DNA from: Clostridia bacterium
GTDB lineage: Bacteria > Bacillota > Clostridia > UMGS1840 > HGM11507
Assembly (NCBI GenBank): GCA_045658425.1
Contig: JAZOVB010000231.1
Span: 1,284 to 65,283 of the forward strand
Direction of reading: 5' to 3'
Length of the DNA: 64,000 bases
Position 1 is the first letter of the stretch; every line of letters starts with the position of its first letter. Below the pieces are notes generated by a model. That model worked only from the letters and a program-made list of their open reading frames with translations. It was not told the origin of the DNA and did no database searches. Of the stretch, positions 8,096 to 21,344 are shown in pieces. The translations under genes and the position numbers were made by a program.

Positions 8096-8123
8096 AGGAA
8101 CATTAAAAACTCCACACAACTTT

Positions 8124-8149
8124 AAAAGGGACTGTAGACAGTCCCTTTT
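8124..8149. terminator. bidirectional terminator (regulator gene / ancestral guaA end)
   Basis: AAAAGGGACTG-TAGA-CAGTCCCTTTT, an 11-bp perfect stem whose A/T runs work for both strands. Confidence 0.8.
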
Positions 8150-8162
8150 AAAGTTATAAATA

Positions 8163-8230
8163 TTATTCTCACTCGGTGCGTTATAACGTGATTTACGTTG
8201 TTTCACCTGATTTTAAGCCGATTTTTTCGC
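8163..8230 (-). pseudogene. relic A of a guaA 3' end (..TE*E-stop; TGG mutated to TGA)
   Basis: Minus strand reads ACC GAG TGA GAA TAA (stop at 8163-8165), one mismatch from the CGAGTGGGAATAA 13-mer at 15994 and 46842. About 70 nt upstream resembles relic B. The terminator lies 14 nt downstream. Confidence 0.5.
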
Positions 8231-8355
8231 TTTCTCCACTTAAAATCTTTCAATTATTTGGTCTTAATTGTTATCTGTTATCATTTTGTTATCATCTATA
8301 TGTTAACATAATATTTGTGGTTTTGCAAGAGTTTAGGAAAGAAAATCCATCTTAC

Positions 8356-9006
8356 TTATCGTTTTAAATATTCCTTATTCACGGCTGCATTTAACACTTG
8401 AACTGAAAACATATCAATGAGCGTAAAAATCTTATCATGTATCTCATTATACCTCTTTTCATCTAAATCAATCGAGGCTAATTTTTCGCCATGAGCTATC
8501 TTATTTCGCATATTTAGCAAAACAGTATCTATAAGTTGAAAATTAGTTTCATACTTATCTGTTTCCAATCCGATTACACTCATAATTTCAACAAAAACTT
8601 CCGAATTCAAATTGCTATTTGTCTTTATAATGCCTGAATATGGGATTTGTGATTTAGAACTATATAAATCAAATATCTCTCCAACGATTTTTGTATGCAA
8701 AATTGATTTTTTAGTTTCGGAAAATAATTTTGTTTTTTCACTAACAGAAAGAGCTAAAAAACTAAATTTCAAATCACCGTATGGTAATTTTAAACTTGAA
8801 ACATACATTAAGTAAAATTCAGCAATATTTTTTATTGCACCTTCCCAGTGAGCGTATAGCAATGTAACCCCCGAACGCAAAGCTGTATCTTTTGCAAAAT
8901 TCCTGGCGCTTTGGATATTTGCCTTTACAGCTGACAATTCGCGCTTTCGCCAACCCATTTCCGCATCAATAGCATCTTGCAAATCATTTATAGTCCTAAT
9001 TTTCAT
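8356..9006 (-). CDS. HEPN-domain protein (MAE_28990/MAE_18760-like predicted nuclease)
   Basis: 216 aa, all-alpha character. Rx4H motif RNKIAH is encoded at 8491-8508. The N-terminal DLQDAIDAEMGWRKRELS text matches this HEPN family as I remember it. The start overlaps the DUF262 stop by 4 nt. Confidence 0.7.
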   Translation of the reverse strand: MKIRTINDLQDAIDAEMGWRKRELSAVKANIQSARNFAKDTALRSGVTLLYAHWEGAIKNIAEFYLMYVSSLKLPYGDLKFSFLALSVSEKTKLFSETKKSILHTKIVGEIFDLYSSKSQIPYSGIIKTNSNLNSEVFVEIMSVIGLETDKYETNFQLIDTVLLNMRNKIAHGEKLASIDLDEKRYNEIHDKIFTLIDMFSVQVLNAAVNKEYLKR

Positions 9007-10106
9007 ACACTGAAATATTCAGCGCCAAACAATGATAAATCTTTATATCTCGGTATAGATCTTACTCCTGGAGTTGTGTTCCTTGTATATACTGCCTCCT
9101 GATATAAATTTCTTATTTTGTCTGTAATCACTTCGTTTCGTTTATCACTCTTTAGTATTTCATTAATATTTACATAAACACCATAAGCAATAGTTTGAAA
9201 TGCTGCAGCCAATACCGGTCCGATATGTTTTTCTCCATTATACTTTTTAAAAGCATCTTCACCTAAAATGCCGTATAACAAATCAAATGTAGCTTTAAAT
9301 CTACTTTCTATTTCATCATAATTCAAATCAAATTCACATAATTTAATTGTTTCTTTGTCCAGTAGTTCTGCAAAATCATTATAAATTCCAATATTATTCC
9401 AATTTATCTTTTCCGCAACAAGCAAACGTATTAACAGTTCCATTCGATATTGTTCGTCTGTTCTTCTGTCAGTTATTGGTAAACAATCTCTAAATGATTG
9501 ATGTCGATCTAATGTGGCAACAAAATCATACAACCTTTTATTAGTCATAATCATCAAGCAATTTCTTACTTCTTGATCACTCAATAACGATCCACCAGTG
9601 TTCAATCTTTGAAACAATTCATATTTTGTATTTGGATCACTTTCTTTCTTCATTATAACAACATCTATTCTAGAACGTTTAAAAAACAACTGCTGTTCTT
9701 TTGTAAAGGATAATTCTGGAACTTTTTCATTATTCCACTGTACACCTGCAAAGGAAGGTAAATAATCTGTTTTTTGCAACGTTAATGGCTCCAACAACTT
9801 ATCATTTTCATCCTTAAAAATACCAACAAATTGAAAAATTGTAGATAGGCGCTGCACACCATCAATAATGTCCCATACCCCATCTTCGTTTTGGCTAACA
9901 AAAATTGATGGTATAGGTATATTGAGCATAATAGATTCTATTAATTTTGTTTTCTGATATTCACTCCATCTAAAGACTCTTTGAAATTCCGGATGTATAT
10001 CCATTTCACCGTCTTTGTATAAATTAATCAATTCCCCAATAGACATTTGATACGAATCTCTAAATATTTTACTTGTTCTTTCCTGAATTTCAGTTTGTAA
10101 AGACAT
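9003..10106 (-). CDS. DUF262 (ParB/Srx-like) domain protein without a DUF1524 nuclease half
   Basis: 367 aa. IHPEFQRVFRWSEYQKTKLIESIMLNIPIPSIFV and IIDGVQRLSTI (DGxQR) are DUF262 hallmarks. No H-N-H/His-Me text in the C-terminal half. RBS AAGGAGG upstream. Confidence 0.8.
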   Translation of the reverse strand: MSLQTEIQERTSKIFRDSYQMSIGELINLYKDGEMDIHPEFQRVFRWSEYQKTKLIESIMLNIPIPSIFVSQNEDGVWDIIDGVQRLSTIFQFVGIFKDENDKLLEPLTLQKTDYLPSFAGVQWNNEKVPELSFTKEQQLFFKRSRIDVVIMKKESDPNTKYELFQRLNTGGSLLSDQEVRNCLMIMTNKRLYDFVATLDRHQSFRDCLPITDRRTDEQYRMELLIRLLVAEKINWNNIGIYNDFAELLDKETIKLCEFDLNYDEIESRFKATFDLLYGILGEDAFKKYNGEKHIGPVLAAAFQTIAYGVYVNINEILKSDKRNEVITDKIRNLYQEAVYTRNTTPGVRSIPRYKDLSLFGAEYFSV

Positions 10107-10118
10107 TTGAATTCCTCC

Positions 10119-11744
10119 TTAACCTCTTCCTAATCGCCGTTTTTGCAACTTTTTCCATATTTGTCTGCACTGTGTACACATTTTTTCGTCAATACCTAGA
10201 ATTTCTTGTAAAACCTCTTTATCAACTATATCTAAAGCAGTTTCTATATCAAGATTATTACGAACAATGTTATCAACACGCGAAAGCAATTCGGATTTTT
10301 TACCAGTATTAATCCCTTCTATTTTAGGAAGCATAATATTTCCCATTTCTCCAGGGAGTATTTCCAGCACGCCGCCCCCATAGCTTCTTCCGCAGATTTC
10401 GGTAAATGCAAAAGATATACTATTGTAATATGACAACAAAACATTATCAGGATCGACACCATCCACAAATTTCATTCGATGCATAGTGTCTGTAGAAACG
10501 GCATCGCAATCATTCAATACAAATTTCGGGTATAAATTACTTCTTCTTAAAAAGAATGCATCCGGAACCCATACAGAAGGTACAATGTACCATCTATCTC
10601 TAATAGAACACTTATATCCTGTATTTTCGCCATTGGCTTCGCCATATTTTATATATTCTATATGCATTTCATCATATTGCTCAATAGGAATATCAGGGAA
10701 AGCCAATAACATAGCTTTTCTTTCATCCGAGATATTTGTATTCCAATCTTCATCAGTAAAATATATTCCACGAGCATGTGAACTACGTCCGATTAATGGA
10801 AGCACAACGCTATCTAGGTTGTATTTATCTACAGTTTCTTTATTTACCGAGAAATAGTCATTATTGCCAGTTGTTATACCCACGTTAATCAAACCATAAT
10901 CAGAAAATTTACAAAAACGAATATCATTTCTAATATCATTTATAAGACTTGATTCTTCTGTTGTTATAAAATACTTTGTCCATTTTTCTGTTGTATGCTG
11001 AAGTTTTTGGTATCCATTTGAATTCAAATCAAGCAAATCAAATCCATTCAAATCTTCCATTTCTATAATACGAATTCCTTTTTCTTCGCCACCTTTTTCA
11101 CCAACAAATACTAATACTTCCTGTTCTATTTCATCAAATACCAACTTTTCAAAGGTAATCAAAGTCATCCGTTGCAAATGATCAGCTAAATATTTTCTTA
11201 AATCTTCTGCATATGCAACTTGTAAAATTTCAGCCGGAATAACAAATGCAATCTTACCATTTTCAGATAACATTTGAACAGATGCTACCAAGAAACCAAC
11301 CCATGCATTTATCAGTTTGTTAGACTTCATACCGTTATCAGTTAATATTTTAGATTGAATTTCTCTTTGGGCTTCTGTTAAGTACTGATAACGGATATAC
11401 GGTGGATTTCCAATAATTAAATCATACTTGATATTATCAGCAGTTCTTTTATAAAATTCGAAAAAATCCTCATTATAGACATTAACATTTTTCTGGTTTT
11501 TAAAGTTAAAATTAACCTTTTGAGCTTCTTCTTTTTCGATTTCTATAGCTGTAATTTCTTGATTATTTGAAATTATGTTTTGCTGATAAAGAGCTTCGAT
11601 AAATACACCATCACCACAACTTGGCTCTAATATAGTATTTATTTTTTCAGACACAAAAAGCTTAACCATTGCATTAGCTAACTTCAATGGCGTATAGTAA
11701 GCTCCTCTTAATTTTTGTTCTGAACTGTTCTCTTTAAGCTTCAT
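10119..11744 (-). CDS. stand-alone N6-adenine DNA methyltransferase (gamma class, Eco57I-M/TaqI-like)
   Basis: 541 aa. AYYTP, motif I EPSCGDGVF, motif IV GNPPYIRYQ, long C-terminal target-recognition region. Confidence 0.85.
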   Translation of the reverse strand: MKLKENSSEQKLRGAYYTPLKLANAMVKLFVSEKINTILEPSCGDGVFIEALYQQNIISNNQEITAIEIEKEEAQKVNFNFKNQKNVNVYNEDFFEFYKRTADNIKYDLIIGNPPYIRYQYLTEAQREIQSKILTDNGMKSNKLINAWVGFLVASVQMLSENGKIAFVIPAEILQVAYAEDLRKYLADHLQRMTLITFEKLVFDEIEQEVLVFVGEKGGEEKGIRIIEMEDLNGFDLLDLNSNGYQKLQHTTEKWTKYFITTEESSLINDIRNDIRFCKFSDYGLINVGITTGNNDYFSVNKETVDKYNLDSVVLPLIGRSSHARGIYFTDEDWNTNISDERKAMLLAFPDIPIEQYDEMHIEYIKYGEANGENTGYKCSIRDRWYIVPSVWVPDAFFLRRSNLYPKFVLNDCDAVSTDTMHRMKFVDGVDPDNVLLSYYNSISFAFTEICGRSYGGGVLEILPGEMGNIMLPKIEGINTGKKSELLSRVDNIVRNNLDIETALDIVDKEVLQEILGIDEKMCTQCRQIWKKLQKRRLGRG

Positions 11745-11756
11745 AATTTACCTCTT

Positions 11757-12914
11757 TCAAAACTGTTGTTTGTAAACTTTTGAAATTAGTTCTTCAATTT
11801 CACAAATCAGATTATCTTTTCTACTTGTCAAAACATTTATGCTATGTCTATCATGAACCTCGCTCAATTGACTATTGATTGCATATACTTCTCGGGTATT
11901 CTCAACAACCTTATTATATAGTATTAGTTGAGCTTCGTCCTCAAAATTTATTTCTATGAATGGCAACTTTGAAAGTACAAACGTACCTCTTGATATAAAT
12001 CCATTTTCAAAGTTACTTCCCATTGTTTCTAATATTTTCTCTGTGTACGGATTTGACATCCACGCCTGAATATATTCAATTGCATACGGGCTTTCTTCTT
12101 TCTTAGAAATCGCGCAATATCCGGCTGTACCGCCAGAGGCAATAAGCATATCTTTGTCATCAAAAGCATACATAGCCTCTCGACTTAATATGCCAACAAT
12201 CAATTTAGGAGTGTTTATAAATGCTGTTAACGCTTGTGTTCTGCCATATTGATACCATGTTTCTGCCGTGGCATTTGGCACATCTCTAACTCCCTTAACA
12301 TCTACACTCTTAGGCACTAATCTTTCGTAATTATCATTTAGATATTCATAAGTTCCTGCATAATCACGCTGCATTACATCTTTAGAAATAAGCTTCCCAT
12401 CGACACCGTACGGAAAAATAATATGTTTATCTGTTTCAAGTATACTATAGGAATTCAATCCTTTTTCTATTCTTTTTGTAGGCTTGAAATATGGTTTTAA
12501 AATAGCTTTTTCTATTTTATACTCTTTATCATTTCTATAGATCATATAACAACTTTCATCTTCACCAATTATTTCATCAGAAGAAAACCAATATATAGGT
12601 TTTGGTCTTTCTGCACTGGTTTGTATTCCGTTAAATATTTCAACATGATTAGTTATTGAAACACCAATTTCTCCAATGTTGTGCAACGAAGACAAAAACT
12701 CTTCATCGGTAGTCAACACCCAAGGTTCAGACGTTATATAATCAGAATTGTATTCCAACTGCCCAACATAACTTTCGGTTAATAATTCTGCTATTTGATT
12801 AACTCTTGTATATTTAAAACTCTCATTATTATTTTTTCTCAACAAAACAATAGAACTATAAATTGTCTTATCTTCAAACAACTGAGCATCGGCAAAATCA
12901 TCCAATTGAACCAT
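11757..12914 (-). CDS. C-terminal (target-recognition) part of the type IIG restriction-modification enzyme, separated by a frameshift
   Basis: 385-aa ORF. Its frame is open upstream of Met1 and there encodes TKEGGYICYIIPNKFFKIKAGKELRKLISTSNL, the conserved methyltransferase segment missing from the upstream ORF. Confidence 0.7.
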   Translation of the reverse strand: MVQLDDFADAQLFEDKTIYSSIVLLRKNNNESFKYTRVNQIAELLTESYVGQLEYNSDYITSEPWVLTTDEEFLSSLHNIGEIGVSITNHVEIFNGIQTSAERPKPIYWFSSDEIIGEDESCYMIYRNDKEYKIEKAILKPYFKPTKRIEKGLNSYSILETDKHIIFPYGVDGKLISKDVMQRDYAGTYEYLNDNYERLVPKSVDVKGVRDVPNATAETWYQYGRTQALTAFINTPKLIVGILSREAMYAFDDKDMLIASGGTAGYCAISKKEESPYAIEYIQAWMSNPYTEKILETMGSNFENGFISRGTFVLSKLPFIEINFEDEAQLILYNKVVENTREVYAINSQLSEVHDRHSINVLTSRKDNLICEIEELISKVYKQQF

Positions 12915-12931
12915 TAAATTGCTAGTAGATA

Positions 12932-14737
12932 TTAATTTTCGTAATTCCTTTCCAGCCTTAATCTTAAAGAATTTATTTGGAATAATATAACAAATATATC
13001 CACCTTCCTTAGTTTTTGAATCGCACGTTCAAGAAAAATGAAATACTTATCAAACTGCATGTATGATGTGCGATATTTAGTTTTATAAGCATCCATTTCT
13101 ACCTTAGGTAACAAATCATGCATTCCTTCGGTATTTACATAAGGTGGATTTCCTATTACAGCATCAAAGATTAAATCGTTCCAATCAAATGGTACAAGTT
13201 TTAGCAACTCATCTATAGTCACTGTCATATCACGTATATCATCATTGCTTACCAATGAATTACCATGTAAAATATTGTTTTCAAGTGCTGGCAAAATGGG
13301 ATTTGTATCAACAACTGACGGAGTCGATTCATCGTCTATCAGTTTAATCAGCAAAGAAAACTTTGAAACTTCCACAGCATGAATATCTATGTCAATACCA
13401 TATATACATGAACATAACAATTCTTTTTTCTCCGTAAAAGGAAGCTTATATCTCCCATTCCCAACTTCGATAAGATGACTTATATCATTACTTATATACC
13501 ACTCTACACAATAAGCCTGTAAATAATCAAATACTTCTTCCAAAAAAACACCTGACCCGCAAGCTATGTCTGCAATTTTTAACGCCTTTATTTCATCGGG
13601 CGTTTTACCTGTACAAAGAGAAGCTAAGGTGGATTTTACAATATATTTAACTATTTCTACCGGAGTAGTTACAACTGATCTATTAACGCATTCATTTTTC
13701 TTGGTTAAAATGACTTGTTCATCGTTAATTTGCAACTGTTCAGTCAAAAACATTTCATATATTTTTCCCAGCATATTAGGTTCAAGTATATTGAATAGAT
13801 AAGGGCTATTGGGGTAATATAACCCTTTTATAATATTTGAAATAACCTCGTTGTCTAAATCGAAGATTATTGACTCACCTGAAAACATTCCAGAATTATA
13901 CTTTCTATCCGCCTCGCGAATAAGTTCTTCTAATTTATTTTTTAACTCGTCTTCATCAATAATCGTTTCGCTTAATTTATGATAAACAGGTAAATTTCTA
14001 TCCTCACATATTCTTAAAAACACTATTTGATTTATAAATGCTTGAACTACATCATTTAATACATCAAGAGAGTGGTATTTTTCATCACTATGATACAGTA
14101 CGTTACTTAAAGCTATTCTCCACTCGTTTATTTGTATTAAAAACCTTTTATCAACAGGCATTCTTTGTGCAACATCTGCCATAAATACATTGTCAAAATA
14201 TGCATCAAAATCACCTGAATATACAACATCTCTTGATATGAGGGAATTTATCTCTTCAATCTTGTTAACATATTCTGAATAATGATAAATTCTATATCTT
14301 GCAACAGCAACATCGTCTTCTTCCTTTGGAATATACGTTGTGTCGTATATTACCAAATATTCAAAATTTGTAAGTATCGCTATCTTGTGACCAGCATTCC
14401 AACCGTATCTTCTTGTTTGCAATGCCGGTTCAGTAATTCTAGATATATCTACAGCAGGTTTCTTTGCTTCTACAAATAACTTAGGAACTCCACACAAAGT
14501 TAATGAATAATCTGGTCTGTCTGTTTCGTTAGTATAATTTTCAGCTATTACTTCTCTATACTGTGGAGCTAATCCCCTTGTGTTTTCTACATCCCATCCA
14601 AGAACACGCAATAATGGATCTATGTATTCAATTCTACACGAATGTTCGTTATAAGCTAAAGCAGGATTTTTATATGATGCTACGTTTGTTTCAAATTGAT
14701 TAACTAAACGTTCCAATTCTCTGATATTAATCGGCAT
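12932..14737 (-). CDS. N-terminal part of the type IIG (Eco57I-like) enzyme: PD-(D/E)xK nuclease plus N6-adenine methyltransferase motifs I and IV
   Basis: DRPDYSL...FVEAKKP nuclease motif, DIACGSGVFL (motif I), GNPPYVN (motif IV). The last ~24 residues (RKVDIFVILFQINSLRLRLERNYEN) are out-of-frame text. Start chosen at ATG 14735-14737 (MPINIRE) with GGAGGAAC upstream; the track ORF extends to 14785. Confidence 0.75.
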   Translation of the reverse strand: MPINIRELERLVNQFETNVASYKNPALAYNEHSCRIEYIDPLLRVLGWDVENTRGLAPQYREVIAENYTNETDRPDYSLTLCGVPKLFVEAKKPAVDISRITEPALQTRRYGWNAGHKIAILTNFEYLVIYDTTYIPKEEDDVAVARYRIYHYSEYVNKIEEINSLISRDVVYSGDFDAYFDNVFMADVAQRMPVDKRFLIQINEWRIALSNVLYHSDEKYHSLDVLNDVVQAFINQIVFLRICEDRNLPVYHKLSETIIDEDELKNKLEELIREADRKYNSGMFSGESIIFDLDNEVISNIIKGLYYPNSPYLFNILEPNMLGKIYEMFLTEQLQINDEQVILTKKNECVNRSVVTTPVEIVKYIVKSTLASLCTGKTPDEIKALKIADIACGSGVFLEEVFDYLQAYCVEWYISNDISHLIEVGNGRYKLPFTEKKELLCSCIYGIDIDIHAVEVSKFSLLIKLIDDESTPSVVDTNPILPALENNILHGNSLVSNDDIRDMTVTIDELLKLVPFDWNDLIFDAVIGNPPYVNTEGMHDLLPKVEMDAYKTKYRTSYMQFDKYFIFLERAIQKLRKVDIFVILFQINSLRLRLERNYEN

Positions 14738-14750
14738 AGCGTTCCTCCAA

Positions 14751-14924
14751 TTAAGTATTTTTTGTTCTATTAAGATACTTATCAATATCTTCTTTCTGAA
14801 TCCTCCATGAATTACCGACTTTGGATGCTATAAGTTCCTTTTTAGATATCAAACGTCTTACTGTTTTATCGCAAACTTTTAAATAATCAGCTGCTTGTGA
14901 TATAGTCAAAATACTATCAGACAT
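14751..14924 (-). CDS. small excisionase-family (MerR-like) HTH DNA-binding protein
   Basis: 57 aa, below the track cutoff. My translation is MSDSILTISQAADYLKVCDKTVRRLISKKELIASKVGNSWRIQKEDIDKYLNRTKNT. RBS AGGAGG lies upstream and it is the first gene of the R-M operon. Confidence 0.65.
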   Translation of the reverse strand: MSDSILTISQAADYLKVCDKTVRRLISKKELIASKVGNSWRIQKEDIDKYLNRTKNT

Positions 14925-15043
14925 AGTTGCATACCTCCTAATTCATTACTTTATATTATAACAAAAAAAGCATGGTAAGTCAAGGACTTTTATGGAATAT
15001 CTTGGACAATTTTGGACTTTGATTGATGCAATTCTGTTTGTTT

Positions 15044-15634
15044 TCATATAAGCACTTCTATATATCTTCTAACCTTTTCTTCAACTCGTGCTAACTTAGA
15101 AAATTCCATAAGCTGATTCAAGTTTTTATCTTTATATCTTGCATATCTTTTATACGCATCTGTAACGATTTGAATGTCCATACAATATCGTTCTTGCAAT
15201 ATATCACACAGAGTATGCTCTATACAATACACATTAACCCTATTTCCAAACGGAGTTTTAACAGAAATAATACCATTTTCATATAGTTCTTTCTTTACTC
15301 TATGAGTGACAACTTCACTTTTAACAGATGAAGTATTATACGAAGCAGGAAATGTCATATCATACCTGCTTGGTGTTCTATTTGAAAAGCCCAAAAGATA
15401 TAATGCTGTACCATTAGAAAAAACACCTTTCTTAAATCTGTTTTGCAAATTAAAAAGCTCATCATCCAGTCTCTCCGGTAATATATAGACACCTCTTGTT
15501 GAGCGTTCCAACATTCCCTTTTCTATCATTACTCGTAAGTAGCCTTTATGTATATTTAATCTATTTAATTCTTCTGTGGTAACAACACCATTATTCAAAT
15601 GAGCAATATCCATAATTTTATCTATATTTGACAT
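15044..15634 (-). CDS. AbiEi-family antitoxin/transcriptional regulator (type IV TA), no cognate AbiEii gene present
   Basis: 196 aa. N-terminal winged-helix text GVVTTEELNRLNIHKGYLRVMIEKGMLERSTRGVY is typical of the AbiEi N-domain. RBS GGAGG upstream. Confidence 0.7.
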   Translation of the reverse strand: MSNIDKIMDIAHLNNGVVTTEELNRLNIHKGYLRVMIEKGMLERSTRGVYILPERLDDELFNLQNRFKKGVFSNGTALYLLGFSNRTPSRYDMTFPASYNTSSVKSEVVTHRVKKELYENGIISVKTPFGNRVNVYCIEHTLCDILQERYCMDIQIVTDAYKRYARYKDKNLNQLMEFSKLARVEEKVRRYIEVLI

Positions 15635-15645
15635 ACTACCTCCTA

Positions 15646-15715
15646 GACAAACATGACTTTTATGCCTATTATTTTATATTAAATAGGCGTAAAAGTCAAC
15701 AACAATATGTTTGTC
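15646..15715. promoter_or_regulatory. inverted repeat in the AbiEi promoter region (candidate operator)
   Basis: TGACTTTTATGCCTATT (15654-15670) and AATAGGCGTAAAAGTCA (15682-15698) match 16/17 with an 11-nt spacer. The outer GACAAAC/GTTTGTC arms extend it. Starts 12 nt upstream of the AbiEi start codon. Confidence 0.5.
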
Positions 15716-15761
15716 CAGCTGATTTAGGATATATTTAGTCGACAAGTCGACTTTTTCTGTC

Positions 15762-15930
15762 CTAAGCTTTACTATCTAACAATAATTTTCTTGCAATTAT
15801 AAACAAACTATTATCCACCGCTGGAATATCTCTTGACAAAGGATCTTTCATATACTCGACATCGGGGTTGAAATCAGGCTTTACAGATTGATAAATTTTA
15901 TTTCGTGCATTAAATTCTGCTTCTGTGTAA
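15762..15930 (-). pseudogene. 3' fragment of an ICE conjugation-module gene (paralog of 46421..46679)
   Basis: Reads ..EAEFNARNKIYQSVKPDFNPDVEYMKDPLSRDIPAVDNSLFIIARKLLLDSKA*. About 80% nucleotide match to 46448-46610. No start codon or 5' part. Confidence 0.6.
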
Positions 15931-15948
15931 ATTCCTAAAAAATAAAAC

Positions 15949-15976
15949 CGACCTAAAATCTGATGATTTCAGGTCG
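15949..15976 (-). terminator. terminator following guaA-end relic B
   Basis: CGACCTAAAATC/GATTTCAGGTCG stem (11/12) with a 4-nt loop and a minus-strand U-tract (A-rich 15937-15947). Lies 18 nt after the relic stop. Confidence 0.6.
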
Positions 15977-15993
15977 ATTAAAGTCATATAAAA

Positions 15994-16095
15994 TTATTCC
16001 CACTCGACTTCCGCTTTTTTAATCACCGTGATTTTCGTTGCTTTTTCGTGATTTTATTATCCACATTTTGCATTTTTCATCGTGGTGATTTTATT
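15994..16095 (-). pseudogene. relic B of a guaA 3' end (..VEWE-stop) with upstream CGTGATTTT direct repeats
   Basis: Minus strand reads GTC GAG TGG GAA TAA (stop at 15994-15996); only ~19 codons are open. CGTGATTTT occurs at 16027 and 16047 and CGTGGTGATTTT at 16081. Confidence 0.5.
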
Positions 16096-16131
16096 TCCGA
16101 AAGTTTTTGTACTCAAAATGTACTCATAAAA

Positions 16132-17904
16132 TTATTCTTTTCTCCAACGTTTAATAACTTCCTCAAATGCAACATTAATCCAATCTTTATTCCATTCGTC
16201 ATATACATTGACATTACTAGAACTTGGCATAGGATTTGGCATACTCATTTTGACAATAGCAGGAAGTGGAACTGCATCTCCGACCACCAAGCATTCACCT
16301 GCTGCCAAAGTAGGAAGAGTATCAACTAACGAAGCATTATTGTCAGGTAGCAAATTCTTAATACAATTTTGATCGTTTACGTTTGTTAATTTAAGAACAA
16401 TAAAGTTGTTACATTGCGAGAATATCGTTTCTGACACTTCAGATGGTCTTTGGCTAACAACCATTAGATTCAAGCCGTACTTTCTACCTTCTTTAGCTAT
16501 TCGTTCAATGGAATGTTTAGATGCATTGTATTCTGCTCCACCGTTCTTAGGTATATAGTTATGAGCTTCTTCACAAACAAGCATAAACGGAATATCATTA
16601 ACCAACCCTGAGGTATGACGAAGTTTTGAATAGTGAAAAGCAAAATCAAAAATAACTCTTGAGAGCAAACTAATCACAATACTAAGTACCTCAAAAGGAA
16701 TGGCGCTCAAATCAATAATAGTAACATTACTTTTATCTATGTAACCCAAGAATTGCTGAAGAATAACATCAAAATCTTCTGTTTTAAATGATTCGCCATT
16801 TTCTTTTTTAGGTGCTGTTATAAATTTGAGTCTTTTATCGGACAATTTGGTTTCTAATCGGGTTACAAATCTCTCAAATTCTCCGTTGTAAGGTCCATTT
16901 GAGGCTTTAGAATCTTTAGATTGACTAGCCGCTGCAAACAATACTTCCTCATTTAAGTAAACATTATCAGCATCATTTATAATCGTTCCATCACTGCGTT
17001 TAGGAAGATGAGGCAATGTTTCATTTTTGTTAATAATTTCACTGTTTTTATTTTTGATATATCTGTAAACTTCCCATATGTCGAAATACACCGGAGTATC
17101 ATAATTGATATGCTCCATAGTAGGATTATGTTTTTCTTTGCTAAGAATTACAGCCTTTTTGAATTGTGATATTTGATTATGCGAATTCATTTCGTTGCTC
17201 TCAATAAACAGAGCCTCTAACTCCTGAGAATTCATAAGCCAGTACGGCAAACAAAGCTTTTCAACATCAAGACAATTTAAACTAAAATTCTCTTCTTCTG
17301 CAAGTTTAAAAGCTGACTGATATTCAGAGTGAATGTCAAAAATTATAACATGGGAGTTTTTTAGTGAATGTGCGTTTTCGTTGTGACCATTGCTAATTTT
17401 CATTATATTCTGCAAAAGTCTAGCAACGGCGCATGACTTACCTGAACCTGTAGATCCTACAACAGCTATATGCTTTCCAAAGAACTTATTTCCATCCACA
17501 AAATAATTTACTGCATCGTTATTAGAAAGATTTCCTATCTGAAATGAGAAATTATCGTTACTGCTAAAAATGGCATTGATAACTTCATCATCCGGCAAAT
17601 ATGCAGGCTCTGTTGGAGAAGGTAGATTTACACCACCTTGCCTAAAAGAAATACCATCTTCTATCTCCGAATAGCACCCTATAGGAGAACAAGAAACCGT
17701 ATAATTAATTGTATCTGCATCTTTAGACTGAACGGCACAAACATTTTGAATTGAAGCCAGTATGTACATATCGTTGCCATCTTCTATAGCTAAATATTTT
17801 GAAACTTTAATTTTTGATTTATTCTGATCAAACACCTCAATACTATTGAGCAAAACTTGTATCGTACCCGGTGTGCTATTTATAACTTTTCCAATTTCAA
17901 TCAT
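16132..17904 (-). CDS. herA: HerA-like (DUF87, FtsK/HerA superfamily) ATPase of a DUF4297-HerA defence pair
   Basis: 590 aa. Walker A VVGSTGSGKSC, Walker B FMLVCEEAHNYIP, N-terminal HAS-barrel-like region. The start lies 3 nt after the upstream stop, with GGAGGTG as RBS. Confidence 0.85.
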   Translation of the reverse strand: MIEIGKVINSTPGTIQVLLNSIEVFDQNKSKIKVSKYLAIEDGNDMYILASIQNVCAVQSKDADTINYTVSCSPIGCYSEIEDGISFRQGGVNLPSPTEPAYLPDDEVINAIFSSNDNFSFQIGNLSNNDAVNYFVDGNKFFGKHIAVVGSTGSGKSCAVARLLQNIMKISNGHNENAHSLKNSHVIIFDIHSEYQSAFKLAEEENFSLNCLDVEKLCLPYWLMNSQELEALFIESNEMNSHNQISQFKKAVILSKEKHNPTMEHINYDTPVYFDIWEVYRYIKNKNSEIINKNETLPHLPKRSDGTIINDADNVYLNEEVLFAAASQSKDSKASNGPYNGEFERFVTRLETKLSDKRLKFITAPKKENGESFKTEDFDVILQQFLGYIDKSNVTIIDLSAIPFEVLSIVISLLSRVIFDFAFHYSKLRHTSGLVNDIPFMLVCEEAHNYIPKNGGAEYNASKHSIERIAKEGRKYGLNLMVVSQRPSEVSETIFSQCNNFIVLKLTNVNDQNCIKNLLPDNNASLVDTLPTLAAGECLVVGDAVPLPAIVKMSMPNPMPSSSNVNVYDEWNKDWINVAFEEVIKRWRKE

Positions 17905-17907
17905 TAA

Positions 17908-19197
17908 TTATGACACCTCCAAATTTCTTTCTAAATTAACCAAATATCTTAATGTGTTCAATTCTTCAATTTCGATTTGTTCTGTATAGTAATTAGAACT
18001 ACTTAAATCAATTGCTATATCTCCGATAATGAACAGCTGATTAACATTGCAAGATTCAAGAATCTCAGTTGTGATATTTTCCAAAGGTGCTATTTTACAA
18101 ACAAATTCTGAAGAGCAGTCTGTGTTGTTTATAAAACTATCCGGCATAAATACACTTCCAACCATACCGCTATTTACTGCTTTTTGATATTTATGTAGTC
18201 CCAATATCACTTTTTGAATTATATCTGAGCCATTTTCAAAAATAAACAACGGAGGTCTTTGCAAAGTTTTCTTTTTATAATACTTTGCAATGTACTCTTG
18301 AATAAACGGGATTATTTGTTCTTCATAGGCTGTATGAAAGTGTTCTGAAAATACAAACGCCCTAATTGCTGTATTTAATGAAAACTGACTAGCTAAATGT
18401 TGTTTTTTTGCTTGCAAAACTTTCTTTTTGTCCACAGCAGCCAACATCCATTTTGTTATTAAAACAGATTCTTTGGATTTTAATTCATCAATAAATGTTT
18501 GTTTTTCAACCATTCGGTCTTTGGCATCTTTTTTAGCGGAAATATTAGCAACCATAGAGAATGCATTAGGATAGTATAATTCTTCTGCAGTCTTTCTATC
18601 GGTTTGCTCGCATAATTTTTGAACGACCTTTTCTTTCAGTTCTTCAAAATCTTCCGCCGGCTCATATGTAAAACATTCCCAAAATTTACTCCAATCGACA
18701 CAAAGGTTTAAAACAGAATTGTTCAAGCTATAATAATTTAATAATTTATCTTTATCTGCTTTACTTTTCTTGGGTTTATTTGCAAGAGCTAGTATTGTTG
18801 TGTCTGGAATTGTATAAATTCTATGAAAATATGAAAGCTGCAATTCTTTACTTGTTGTAGTTGAAATATGTTTTTCAAAAGCAGATGTATCAAATTCTTC
18901 AATATTTTCACTATAATGTGCATATAAAATATAATGTGTACTTCTACCTAATGCAACACACTCATTATAATGACATACCATTTCTAAAATAGGAGCTGCC
19001 ACACTAGACATTGTAAACTTGGAATCGTCATGATACTTACATTGAATGGTAGCTGTTGAATTTGGTAATTGTATATCAATATCTTCGATAACTCCCTCAA
19101 GCGTCACTGTTGCTTCATCGTCTGAATTTAGAATTTCAAGGATTGACTTGTTGAATTGATACAAATAACCTTTTATAGTGCTATTTGCTTGTCTCAT
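17908..19197 (-). CDS. DUF4297 (Cap4-like PD-(D/E)xK nuclease) domain protein, partner of HerA
   Basis: 429 aa. N-terminal KGYLYQF...LEGVIEDIDIQ...IQCKYH matches the GYxYQ / ExD / QxK signature of DUF4297 nucleases. Confidence 0.8.
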   Translation of the reverse strand: MRQANSTIKGYLYQFNKSILEILNSDDEATVTLEGVIEDIDIQLPNSTATIQCKYHDDSKFTMSSVAAPILEMVCHYNECVALGRSTHYILYAHYSENIEEFDTSAFEKHISTTTSKELQLSYFHRIYTIPDTTILALANKPKKSKADKDKLLNYYSLNNSVLNLCVDWSKFWECFTYEPAEDFEELKEKVVQKLCEQTDRKTAEELYYPNAFSMVANISAKKDAKDRMVEKQTFIDELKSKESVLITKWMLAAVDKKKVLQAKKQHLASQFSLNTAIRAFVFSEHFHTAYEEQIIPFIQEYIAKYYKKKTLQRPPLFIFENGSDIIQKVILGLHKYQKAVNSGMVGSVFMPDSFINNTDCSSEFVCKIAPLENITTEILESCNVNQLFIIGDIAIDLSSSNYYTEQIEIEELNTLRYLVNLERNLEVS

Positions 19198-19281
19198 ATT
19201 CTCACCACCTTTTGTATTACAACATATTTTAATAATATTTCTCTCTCATTATTTAACACAATACTAGTTTTTTATCAGCGG

Positions 19282-20052
19282 TCAACCAATTAGTAATTTT
19301 GTATTATAATCTGTTACAAATAGCACACACGTACATAATACATATATGAATCCTGCGTTACTTAGAGATACTTTGTTTTGTTCCTTCAGTGTGGCAATGT
19401 AGTCAATTTGCTTCGCAAAGTCAATCAACGCAGTATTATCCAAATCATACTTGTTATTTAGAATATATGACATTTTCTTTAAATTGTGAATCATAACTTC
19501 CTGTAATAATGTTCTATCATATTTTCTGTAGTCATGAAACTTTGTTTCTGCACCAACAGTTTCTTTATAGTGCTCAATATCAATAACATTACATATTCTA
19601 TCTCTGTAAGAATCGTCCGGCAATGGTTTTTCATTCAAATGTCGATATGATTCTATCATAGGATAATTTATATATAACTGTCCGTTTTCTACTGAATCAT
19701 TAAAAAACATACTCATATTTTCTAATGTGTCAGCATTAAATCTTGGATCTTGTCTTTCATAATCAAACACTAAAAATATGTCTGTTATTTTTTTGCCTTT
19801 TATTTCGGGAAATTTTGCTTCTAAAAAACCTCTAAATTCTATATCATCATACTCATACCAATTTTGTCCAAACTCATTTGTTAAATCATCATTTAATACC
19901 CATAGATTTGTATTATACACCAAAACATTTTCAGGTGACAGCTTTATTTCAGGAAAACACTTAATAATTTGCCCGAATAAATTAACCTCGTCATCTGCGC
20001 CCTCAACAACTAGAAGAATATTTCGACTTTCATTATACATCGAATTCACCAT
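19282..20052 (-). CDS. TOPRIM-like protein of the RloB / DUF4435 / DUF4276 class (AbiLii- or AriB-like)
   Basis: 256 aa. ILLVVEGADDEVNLF (E-G acidic motif), LVFDYERQD, INYPMIESY (resembles the SNPCFE motif of RloB). Overlaps the ATPase gene; alternative start ATG at 20040 (MYNES) with GGTGA upstream. Confidence 0.6.
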   Translation of the reverse strand: MVNSMYNESRNILLVVEGADDEVNLFGQIIKCFPEIKLSPENVLVYNTNLWVLNDDLTNEFGQNWYEYDDIEFRGFLEAKFPEIKGKKITDIFLVFDYERQDPRFNADTLENMSMFFNDSVENGQLYINYPMIESYRHLNEKPLPDDSYRDRICNVIDIEHYKETVGAETKFHDYRKYDRTLLQEVMIHNLKKMSYILNNKYDLDNTALIDFAKQIDYIATLKEQNKVSLSNAGFIYVLCTCVLFVTDYNTKLLIG

Positions 20053-21163
20053 TCTTATATAATTTCTCCAAATTATGCCCTTGTCTTAATTCTCTGCTTG
20101 TTGCTTCGCAGATAGGTGTCAAGTTGCCGTTACTTAATATCATAAAGCAATCCGGGCGCATAATTGAATTGCTTAATAAATTAGTATTATGAGAAGTTAA
20201 AATAACTTGACAATCAAATTCTTCTTCAAGCAATCGCACAATTTTTTCTGACAACTCAAAATGATAATATGCATCATATTCATCCATAAATACAAAAGAC
20301 GGTTTATTTCGATTTAAATATTGTAAATAAAATCTTGTTAAAGCTAAGGTTCCACTTGACATATTACTAGAGAACAACAATGGTTTCTTGTGGTCAAAGT
20401 ATAGTTCTTTGTTTCCCTCCGGTTGTTCTTTCATAACTAATTTACACTTAACGCCGCAATCGTTCAAAAACTTTTCAAAATTATCCAAATCTTCTTGTTC
20501 TTCAAAGTATTCCTCAAAATTAAAACGAATACGCATATTTGCATTTGCTGAGGTTGTAAATTTCATATTTTTTATAAATTGGGATAATTTATATATAACC
20601 GAAGTGTCTTTTTGAACAGTATTGTAAATGATATATCTGAGAGCTGTGGGATTTGTGGATTCTTTATCATCGTTAACACTAGCATCAAAGAATTCATCCC
20701 AATTCAATTCGTTTGCATTAATTTCATTCACATTTGAGAAGTCTTTTGTTCCATCATCTAGATTATAGCAGAATATCGTTTGATTATTTATGGTTAATTT
20801 TTCAAAAACGGTATCAAAAATGTCCCTTTTTTTATATTCGTAATCCAGCACATCGCTTCCAAATTGGAACGAATAGAAAAATTCTATTAATTCGTCATCA
20901 GCAGCATCGGCATTTTTATACATTCTTTGGTCATTTCGATAATAAAACGGATTTCTCGTAACCTGAATATCATAAACAATATCATATAATGCAGAACCCA
21001 AGTTGCTTTTTCCTTCTGCATTTTTTCCATAGATAATCATTTTGCTAATCAAATCAGAATTAACGCAATATTCGTTATATTTGTAGTCATGAACATTAGT
21101 AAAATCAATACTAATAGTGTCTCTAAAATTCTTATAATTTTTCACTTGAAACTTTCTAATCAT
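20033..21163 (-). CDS. ABC/SMC-like AAA_21-type ATPase (AbiLi- or AriA-like)
   Basis: Walker A YGKNAEGKSN, SSGT signature-like text, Walker B FVFMDEYDAY, H-loop ILTSHN. Start chosen at ATG 21163 (MIRKFQVKNYKNF) with GGAGGGA 5 nt upstream; the track ORF extends to 21184. Confidence 0.8.
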   Translation of the reverse strand: MIRKFQVKNYKNFRDTISIDFTNVHDYKYNEYCVNSDLISKMIIYGKNAEGKSNLGSALYDIVYDIQVTRNPFYYRNDQRMYKNADAADDELIEFFYSFQFGSDVLDYEYKKRDIFDTVFEKLTINNQTIFCYNLDDGTKDFSNVNEINANELNWDEFFDASVNDDKESTNPTALRYIIYNTVQKDTSVIYKLSQFIKNMKFTTSANANMRIRFNFEEYFEEQEDLDNFEKFLNDCGVKCKLVMKEQPEGNKELYFDHKKPLLFSSNMSSGTLALTRFYLQYLNRNKPSFVFMDEYDAYYHFELSEKIVRLLEEEFDCQVILTSHNTNLLSNSIMRPDCFMILSNGNLTPICEATSRELRQGHNLEKLYKNGEFDV

Positions 21164-21224
21164 AACTATCCCTCCAATAATCAATATATGATCGCATTCT
21201 TATTATACCACATGGTATCAAAAA

Positions 21225-21267
21225 AATCAATAGTATGCCGTAAAAAAATTACGGCATACTATTGATT
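21225..21267. terminator. strong bidirectional hairpin separating ICE debris from the defence genes
   Basis: Perfect 19-bp stem AATCAATAGTATGCCGTAA / TTACGGCATACTATTGATT with an A5 loop, flanked by A- and T-runs. Confidence 0.7.
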
Positions 21268-21344
21268 TTACTTATTGACTAAAAATTCCACTTGTCAAAG
21301 TGCTGAAAATGAGCGAAAATCTCATATACAATAGCCTTTATTTC

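Follow-up and report, generated by a model that had tools for sequence, protein, structure and literature searches.

A predicted two-gene DUF262-HEPN phage defence module at the 3' end of a clostridial restriction-modification operon

A 64,000-nucleotide (nt) stretch of DNA from a Clostridia bacterium (contig JAZOVB010000231.1 of assembly GCA_045658425.1), referred to here as the window, contains two adjacent minus-strand genes that encode a DUF262/ParB-like protein and a small HEPN protein. Our analysis indicated that this pair is probably a two-gene module of the DUF262-HEPN kind that acts autonomously against phage; this grouping includes PD-T4-2 and the operons in which a MAE_28990 HEPN gene is combined with a ParB gene. 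The architecture is not new: a computational description dates from 2013 and experimental validation, as PD-T4-2, from 2022. The window carries a further, divergent example of it. Coordinates are positions in the window, and those of other loci are given together with the locus number.

The DUF262/ParB-like gene (9003..10106, minus strand) encodes a protein of 367 amino acids (aa) and was identified as an open reading frame (ORF) with a match to Pfam PF03235. The HEPN gene (8356..9006, minus strand), likewise identified from its ORF and from Pfam, encodes a 216-aa effector of the RiboL-PSP/MAE_28990 type that is predicted to be an RNase. An earlier note on this DNA had described two ORFs joined by a stop/start overlap, and both ORFs and the overlap were present as reported: an ATGA at 9003..9006 (minus strand) was read from the sequence, with the TGA stop codon of the DUF262 gene at 9005..9003 and the ATG start codon of the HEPN gene at 9006..9004. 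Inspection of the sequence also revealed a Shine-Dalgarno sequence, AAGGAGG, ahead of the DUF262 start codon. No Shine-Dalgarno sequence was present ahead of the HEPN start codon, a result that fits translational coupling of the HEPN gene to the DUF262 gene, and from this arrangement the two genes are predicted to be translationally coupled.

The match of the 367-aa protein to PF03235 (GmrSD_N/DUF262) extended over residues 23-184 (3.6e-27, 96.2 bits, cut-off 33.2). The three motifs named in the earlier note, FQRVFRW, DGVQR and, in the HEPN protein, RNKIAH, were all located, at residues 41-47, 82-86 and 167-172, respectively. FQRVFRW (9966..9986, minus strand) corresponds to DUF262 motif I, QRxxxW. 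DGVQR (9849..9863, minus strand) corresponds to motif II, DGxQR, the motif predicted to form the nucleotide-binding centre, a role taken from the literature (PMC12065111). Residue conservation was scored over 70 homologues spanning many phyla, and all 70 retained Q42, R43 and W47 of motif I, D82, G83, Q85 and R86 of motif II, and F165 and N169 of a third DUF262 motif, FxxxN. In the AlphaFold2 (AF2) model of the protein, which had a predicted local distance difference test score (pLDDT) of 82.7, an N-terminal ParB-like alpha/beta domain was followed by an all-helical region that comprised residues 177-364. The protein thus comprises a DUF262/ParB-like nucleoside triphosphatase (NTPase) domain (residues 20-185, approximately) and a helical ParBDB-like C-terminal domain (residues 177-364, approximately), and is a predicted sensor. 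Foldseek searches with the model returned only BrxU and proteins of the ParB fold; pNOB8 ParB-N (prob 1.00) and BrxU (7p9k, prob 0.97) were the top matches, and KorB, Noc and PadC were also among them.

The possibility that the C-terminal half of this protein conceals a nuclease was considered. The earlier note had claimed that the DUF1524/His-Me half of the characterised DUF262 enzymes was absent, and the data agreed. There was no Pfam or NCBIfam match past residue 184, and neither a His-Me nor a PD-(D/E)xK nuclease fold was found among the Foldseek matches of the model. The residues of the C-terminal half that were conserved in at least 90% of the 70 homologues were E223, R227, F270, F274, L277, F286, G296, G309, G347 and R353; no histidine in this half was conserved at that level. 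Searched against the PDB by sequence and by profile, the DUF262 protein gave no match. The profile hidden Markov model (HMM) searches that had been proposed for DUF262, DUF1524 and HEPN families were carried out on the pair and matched PF03235, PF18735 and PF18737, but not DUF1524. A cryptic nuclease of the GmrSD kind was looked for by both HMM and structure searches of the 367-aa protein and was not found; as judged from its sequence and model, the protein has neither a DUF1524 domain nor any other nuclease domain.

The 216-aa protein matched two Pfam HEPN families over nearly its whole length, namely RiboL-PSP-HEPN (PF18735; 1.7e-34, 119.8 bits, cut-off 28.4) and MAE_28990-like HEPN (PF18737; 2.1e-31, 110.2 bits, cut-off 26.8). 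It carries a catalytic-type Rx4H motif, R167-N-K-I-A-H172 (8491..8508, minus strand), in which both R167 and H172 were invariant in the family alignment and in 70 of 70 cross-phylum homologues. The AF2 model was all-helical, with a mean pLDDT of 93.2. Consistent with the earlier description of an all-helical HEPN protein of the MAE_28990-like type with an Rx4H motif, the Pfam, AF2 and conservation results were in agreement, and its homologues bear the NCBI name 'MAE_28990/MAE_18760 family HEPN-like nuclease'. The family is a large one: an exhaustive profile search (E <= 0.001) yielded 2252 representatives at 50% identity, and a word-limited search yielded 545 clusters at 90% identity. With the exception of a few short fragments, the top 150 representatives were stand-alone proteins of approximately 210-270 aa. 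None of these 150 was a DUF262-HEPN fusion, the longest being no more than 272 aa.

Prior knowledge of this architecture comes from two sources. The first is the comparative study of Anantharaman et al. (2013), Table 1 of which lists an operon type composed of a MAE_28990 HEPN gene, a ParB nuclease gene and a DNA methylase gene (PMC3710099). This entry agrees with the statement in the earlier note that comparative genomics had linked the HEPN family to DUF262 and restriction-modification (R-M) genes. The window locus has the same HEPN family and the same operon partners; a MAE_28990 HEPN gene was found here beside a ParB-like gene, and methylase genes accompanied the pair in the clostridial clade and at loci L022 and L080. 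The sequence features place the locus plainly within the MAE_28990/ParB operon class. That class differs from a characterised system in being a computational description, with no mechanism past an 'HEPN RNase in an R-M context'.

The second source is PD-T4-2 from Escherichia coli ECOR65, which Vassallo et al. (2022) listed in their Table S1 as 'DUF262, HEPN' (PMC9519451). In that study, HHpred assigned PD-T4-2A to PF03235 (99.7%) and PD-T4-2B to both PF18735 RiboL-PSP (97.8%) and PF18737 MAE_28990 (96.9%). The two cloned genes shielded E. coli K-12 from T4, deletion of the system made native ECOR65 sensitive to T4, and loss of protection was reported for four domain mutants, H127A in PD-T4-2B among them (PMC9519451). 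The residue H127 is the equivalent of H172 in the window protein. In reviews, PD-T4-2 is grouped with Menshen and Dazbog among the systems that have DUF262 but lack DUF1524 (PMC10952713, PMC12065111). The claim of the earlier note that no experimentally described system had this architecture was thus incorrect, PD-T4-2 having been validated in 2022 (PMC9519451).

Authentic PD-T4-2 was recovered for comparison by a search of complete E. coli genomes for the published lambda-red primer, which matched 17 of 5426. The locus in E. coli 2009C-3133 (L089; NZ_CP013025.1, 3553868..3555503) was confirmed as PD-T4-2 by the PADLOC models (A, 538 bits; B, 213 bits). In this genome the system lies in a P4-like satellite hotspot, between psu and the integrase gene, and is integrated next to ssrA; RefSeq labels its products 'DUF262 domain-containing protein' and 'HEPN domain-containing protein'.

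The window pair and PD-T4-2 each consist of two genes in the same order, the first encoding a DUF262 domain and a helical C-terminus without DUF1524 and the second a small stand-alone HEPN protein with an Rx4H motif, and both loci are situated in defence hotspots. The sensors were homologous over their full length; with the family profile, hhalign gave 99.7% over 292 columns that included the C-terminal domain. The PADLOC PD-T4-2_A model matched the window DUF262 protein at 1.6e-29 and 101 bits (model positions 39-337 of 363), and the PADLOC NsnA model scored PD-T4-2A and the window protein at 197 and 201 bits, respectively. At the level of single sequences the sensors have diverged, with 32% identity and a BLASTP match to the N-terminal domain only (2e-21). 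The effectors both passed the gathering score of PF18735 (119.8 bits for the window protein and 31.4 bits for PD-T4-2B), but PD-T4-2B has 167 aa compared to 216 aa. The PD-T4-2B family comprised 33 clusters at 90% identity compared to 2252 representatives at 50% identity for the window family, counts that were obtained in separate searches and can be compared only roughly. Finally, the PD-T4-2 genes are separated by a 4-nt gap, rather than joined by an ATGA overlap, and no R-M genes accompany them in their P4-like satellite at ssrA. Judged from these comparisons, the window locus is PD-T4-2-like rather than an orthologue of PD-T4-2, with an effector that belongs to the same Pfam family but to a different subfamily.

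Several results weighed against reading the pair as a defence module of this kind. BLASTP detected no similarity between PD-T4-2B and the window HEPN protein, none of the three PADLOC PD-T4-2_B models matched the window protein at E <= 0.1, and the window HEPN family profile gave a non-significant result with the single PD-T4-2B sequence. Profile-profile comparison of the two effectors, carried out with two alignments and two settings, returned a probability of 1-2% and aligned only the RNxxAH stretch. Because the HEPN partners were not linked beyond this motif, the transfer of function from PD-T4-2 rests on shared architecture and Pfam family rather than on both partners being orthologous. 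No solved structure was found to resemble the HEPN model: searched against the PDB by sequence and by profile, the HEPN protein gave no match, and a Foldseek search of the PDB with its model gave nothing at E <= 0.001, only chance helical-bundle matches. The latter result means that no close structure has been solved, and not that the protein is not a HEPN protein. In addition, no publication on the mechanism of PD-T4-2 was found in the searchable literature, and it is by analogy that we infer the trigger, the HEPN substrate and whether the outcome would be abortive infection or direct immunity.

The conservation of the pair across genomes, which the earlier note had asked to be surveyed independently of the R-M genes, supported its autonomy. 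A HEPN-family profile search of a species-representative genome collection identified 80 loci, and in 78 of these a DUF262 orthologue, either intact or decayed, was located directly upstream on the same strand (E values of 1e-68 to 1e-192 where full length). The loci were from Bacillota, Cyanobacteria, Alpha-, Beta- and Gammaproteobacteria, Acidobacteria, Actinobacteria, Chloroflexi, Gemmatimonadota and the candidate phyla radiation (Saccharimonadales), as well as one archaeal Methanoregula. At the DUF262-HEPN junction, 41 of 79 loci showed a -4 overlap, and most of the remainder had 0-16 nt between the genes. Pairwise identities among the DUF262 proteins and among the HEPN proteins were correlated (r = 0.89), including among 53 non-clostridial pairs. 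The type IIG and methylase cassette accompanied the pair only in the clostridial clade (HEPN identity of at least 53%). Outside the Clostridia, 181 of 195 neighbour clusters were singletons and the largest had three members, the representative of which was similar to an ABC-type transporter ATPase; no third conserved partner of the pair was found there. The conservation of the pair without R-M genes outside the Clostridia points to an autonomous two-gene module.

The pair has also been found behind R-M genes of another type. In two other Bacillota genomes (L022, 31..4199; L024, 5915..8636) it follows a BsuBI/PstI-type restriction endonuclease gene, which in L022 is itself preceded by an Eco57I-family methylase gene; this context indicates that the pair docked independently behind a second R-M type. 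An N6_N4 methylase gene is located beside the pair in L080. As judged from the gene neighbourhoods, the pair is an autonomous, mobile module that has docked repeatedly at the 3' end of Bacillota R-M operons. When 2.9 million viral contigs were scanned, one locus with DUF262 upstream of HEPN was found (L090, 2933..4659; IMG/VR UViG_2911878434_000003), and the module is consequently not typically phage-borne.

A gene of the Mrr_cat type, which is type IV restriction-like, was observed just downstream of the pair in a widespread gut metagenome lineage (L001-L008, 8968..9780) and in a Methyloceanibacter genome (L059, 8741..9730).

In the window, the pair forms the end of a minus-strand operon with the order helix-turn-helix (HTH) gene, type IIG enzyme, M.Eco57I-like methylase, DUF262 and HEPN, and with gaps of 12-13 nt. 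The first cistron (14751..14924, minus strand) encodes a 57-aa small DNA-binding protein of the HTH_17/excisionase type (PF12728, 3.5e-17); orthologous cassettes have a 61-aa HTH_17 gene at the matching position. The methylase gene (10119..11744, minus strand) is intact and encodes a 541-aa N6-adenine DNA methyltransferase (Pfam PF22837, PF07669 and PF02384; PADLOC MTase_II, 610 bits). Just upstream of the HTH gene is a promoter-like site, TTGACT-17-TATAAT with a TG extension (14955..14983, minus strand), which was identified by consensus match only (11/12) and was the best in the region. An intrinsic-terminator-like hairpin with a 20-bp stem and a T run is located 3' of the HEPN gene (8115..8158, minus strand). 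With a single promoter-like site and a single terminator, the five genes are predicted to form one operon and to be co-transcribed here.

The tight packing and gene order given in the earlier note were borne out, but it had overlooked a frameshift in the type IIG R-M gene (11757..14785, minus strand), which is disrupted and consists of two ORFs (12932..14785 and 11757..12914). In a comparison with the 1011-position PADLOC REase_MTase_IIG model, the matches to model positions 9-590 and 623-995 fell on one ORF each. A tblastn search with an intact 998-aa orthologue placed the change of frame at 13007-13016, and DNA alignment revealed a one-base gap beside an A5 run, that is, a 1-nt deletion. The frame switch and the one-base gap indicate that the type IIG gene is a pseudogene here, or that the sequence contains an error. 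The orthologues in approximately 20 clostridial genomes are intact, with 998 aa. The methylase, DUF262 and HEPN genes of the window are intact.

The proximity of the pair to these genes raises an alternative that we regard as unlikely, namely that it is an integrated accessory of the R-M cassette. The DUF262 protein would read the N6-methyladenine (m6A) mark of the cassette methylase or of the type IIG enzyme, the HEPN protein would fire if that mark were missing or altered, and the five genes would be one system. In keeping with this proposal, the five-gene order (HTH, type IIG, methylase, DUF262, HEPN) is retained in approximately 20 clostridial species-level genomes and many metagenome contigs, the cassette is bracketed by one promoter-like site and one terminator, and the association with methylase genes was noted by Anantharaman et al. 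(PMC3710099). It is opposed by the more than 50 loci in other phyla that have the pair without a conserved methylase or a recurrent neighbour, by the BsuBI/PstI genes, of another R-M type, that precede the pair in L022 and L024, by the ability of the two PD-T4-2 genes to work alone in E. coli K-12 (PMC9519451), and by the intact state of the pair beside a frameshifted type IIG gene. There is, then, a small chance that the clostridial genes make up an integrated two-layer system, in which the DUF262 protein would read either the modification state set by its own methylase or evading phage DNA and would then trigger an RNA-cutting HEPN fail-safe. If true, such a system would couple R-M directly and functionally to abortive infection. 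In a more modest version, the large HEPN subfamily (2252 representatives) could have a trigger or an RNA target unlike that of PD-T4-2.

For the autonomous defence module that we favour, a mechanism is proposed by analogy with GmrSD, BrxU and SspE. In these enzymes the DUF262 domain senses modified DNA, an NTPase cycle activates the attached nuclease and the DUF1524 domain cuts (PMC10952713, PMC12065111). The window protein shares with them an N-terminal DUF262 NTPase domain with DGxQR, BrxU (7p9k) was among its top fold matches, and it adjoins a modification-based defence, as BrxU does in BREX. It differs in lacking their DUF1524/His-Me nuclease domain, and membership of the GmrSD type was rejected because DUF1524 was absent. 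Since the predicted effector is instead a separate HEPN protein, the predicted target is RNA and not DNA. Among defence HEPN proteins, DARNA/PD-T7-3 cleaves tRNA anticodon loops (bioRxiv 10.64898/2026.02.22.705581).

It is reasonable, on this analogy, to propose, as the earlier note did, that a DUF262 sensor licenses the HEPN nuclease, and published work puts forward this idea for related systems. The DUF262-ParBDB protein would bind DNA and recognise a phage-associated feature, modified DNA being the likeliest, as in GmrSD, BrxU and SspE. Binding or hydrolysis of a nucleoside triphosphate would alter its conformation, and this change would license a bound HEPN dimer to cut RNA, which may be tRNA, mRNA or rRNA. 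Cleavage of RNA would halt phage growth, and the infected cell would probably be sacrificed. In the Clostridia, where the module has docked 3' of R-M operons, it would act against phages that get past restriction, and in the window the pair would stay active despite the broken type IIG gene.

Menshen (NsnABC; Millman et al. 2022; Li et al. 2025, PMC12065111) was also considered, as its proposed sensor NsnA has the same ParB-DUF262 and ParBDB layout. The PADLOC NsnA model was in fact the best-scoring model for the window DUF262 protein (9.8e-60, 200.8 bits, residues 11-340). The PADLOC search of the operon matched neither the NsnB ATPase nor the NsnC inPIN-nuclease, and downstream of the DUF262 gene there is only the HEPN gene and then the terminator. 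Membership of Menshen was rejected because NsnB and NsnC were absent.

A further alternative is that the pair is a toxin-antitoxin or addiction module, in which the HEPN protein would be a constitutive RNase toxin and the DUF262 protein its antitoxin; the role of the pair would be to keep the R-M cassette or the island stable, without sensing phage. Many two-gene HEPN modules are toxin-antitoxin systems, for example HEPN-MNT, and in the window the putative antitoxin gene is first and is tightly coupled to its partner. Anantharaman et al. proposed this function for a MAE_18760 HEPN and a ParA-like ATPase (PMC3710099). Evidence to the contrary was obtained from natural loci with one broken partner. 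In L018 (7916..8001) the DUF262 gene has been deleted, with its last 18 codons left directly after the methylase gene; in L019 (7600..7995) the N-terminal 233 residues are gone and the C-terminal third is left; and in L035 (6894..8001) the gene is frameshifted. All three loci have a full-length HEPN gene with its motif. The converse, a broken HEPN gene with an intact DUF262 gene, was observed in L020, L031, L033, L051 and L074. Retention of the HEPN gene without DUF262 at three loci suggests that the HEPN protein is not a constitutive toxin, and fits a DUF262 activator or sensor rather than an antitoxin; this sample is small, errors in metagenome-assembled genomes may have contributed to it, and the HEPN gene may not be expressed at these loci. 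Furthermore, homologues from different phyla all retain the DUF262 NTPase motifs, a conservation that would be needless for a simple binding antitoxin, and PD-T4-2 acts as a phage defence system (PMC9519451). Overall, a toxin-antitoxin function is improbable.

It is more improbable still that the module targets DNA, with the ParB-like DUF262 domain itself the nuclease and the HEPN protein a non-catalytic or regulatory partner, as some ParB/Srx-fold proteins have been reported to be nucleases. Anantharaman et al. did name the partner a 'ParB nuclease' (PMC3710099), but in GmrSD, BrxU and SspE the DUF262 domain is the NTPase and sensor and DUF1524 cleaves (PMC10952713, PMC12065111), the HEPN Rx4H motif is invariant, and the PD-T4-2 HEPN His mutant is among those reported to lose protection.

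The subfamily of the window HEPN protein exceeds the validated PD-T4-2B family by far in size and also in taxonomic breadth. As the PADLOC PD-T4-2_B models miss this subfamily, current annotation probably under-counts such systems. The strict co-inheritance and coupling of the two genes across phyla would make the pair a compact model for the control of a HEPN nuclease by a ParB-like NTPase, a mechanism that is unsolved for PD-T4-2, as judged from the searchable literature, and for Menshen and Dazbog, as judged from reviews (PMC10952713, PMC12065111). The repeated docking of the pair behind different Bacillota R-M operons also serves as an example of the embedding of defence systems.

The operon is part of a defence island that spans approximately 8200 to 21300 of the window. 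The claim of the earlier note that the pair was accompanied by other defence modules held in part. A DUF4297 and HerA defence pair does adjoin the operon (16132..19197, minus strand), with DUF4297 (429 aa; PADLOC, 151 bits) at 17908..19197 and HerA (590 aa; PADLOC, 567 bits) at 16132..17904. The overlapping gene pair at 19282..21184 (minus strand) matched the candidate system PDC-M12, in which PADLOC identified A as an AbiL-like ATPase (314 bits) and scored B at 135 bits. An AbiEi antitoxin-type gene (15044..15634, minus strand; 219 bits) has the HTH gene of the R-M cassette as the next gene downstream. No AbiEii nucleotidyltransferase gene was found beside it, and the AbiEi gene is possibly an orphan or else a remnant. 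Outside the island are peptidase, GDSL lipase, GH20, heparinase-like and SLH-domain genes, and to its left, as judged from translations only, are genes that resemble those of a pyridoxal phosphate-dependent regulator of the GntR/MocR type and of a membrane protein.

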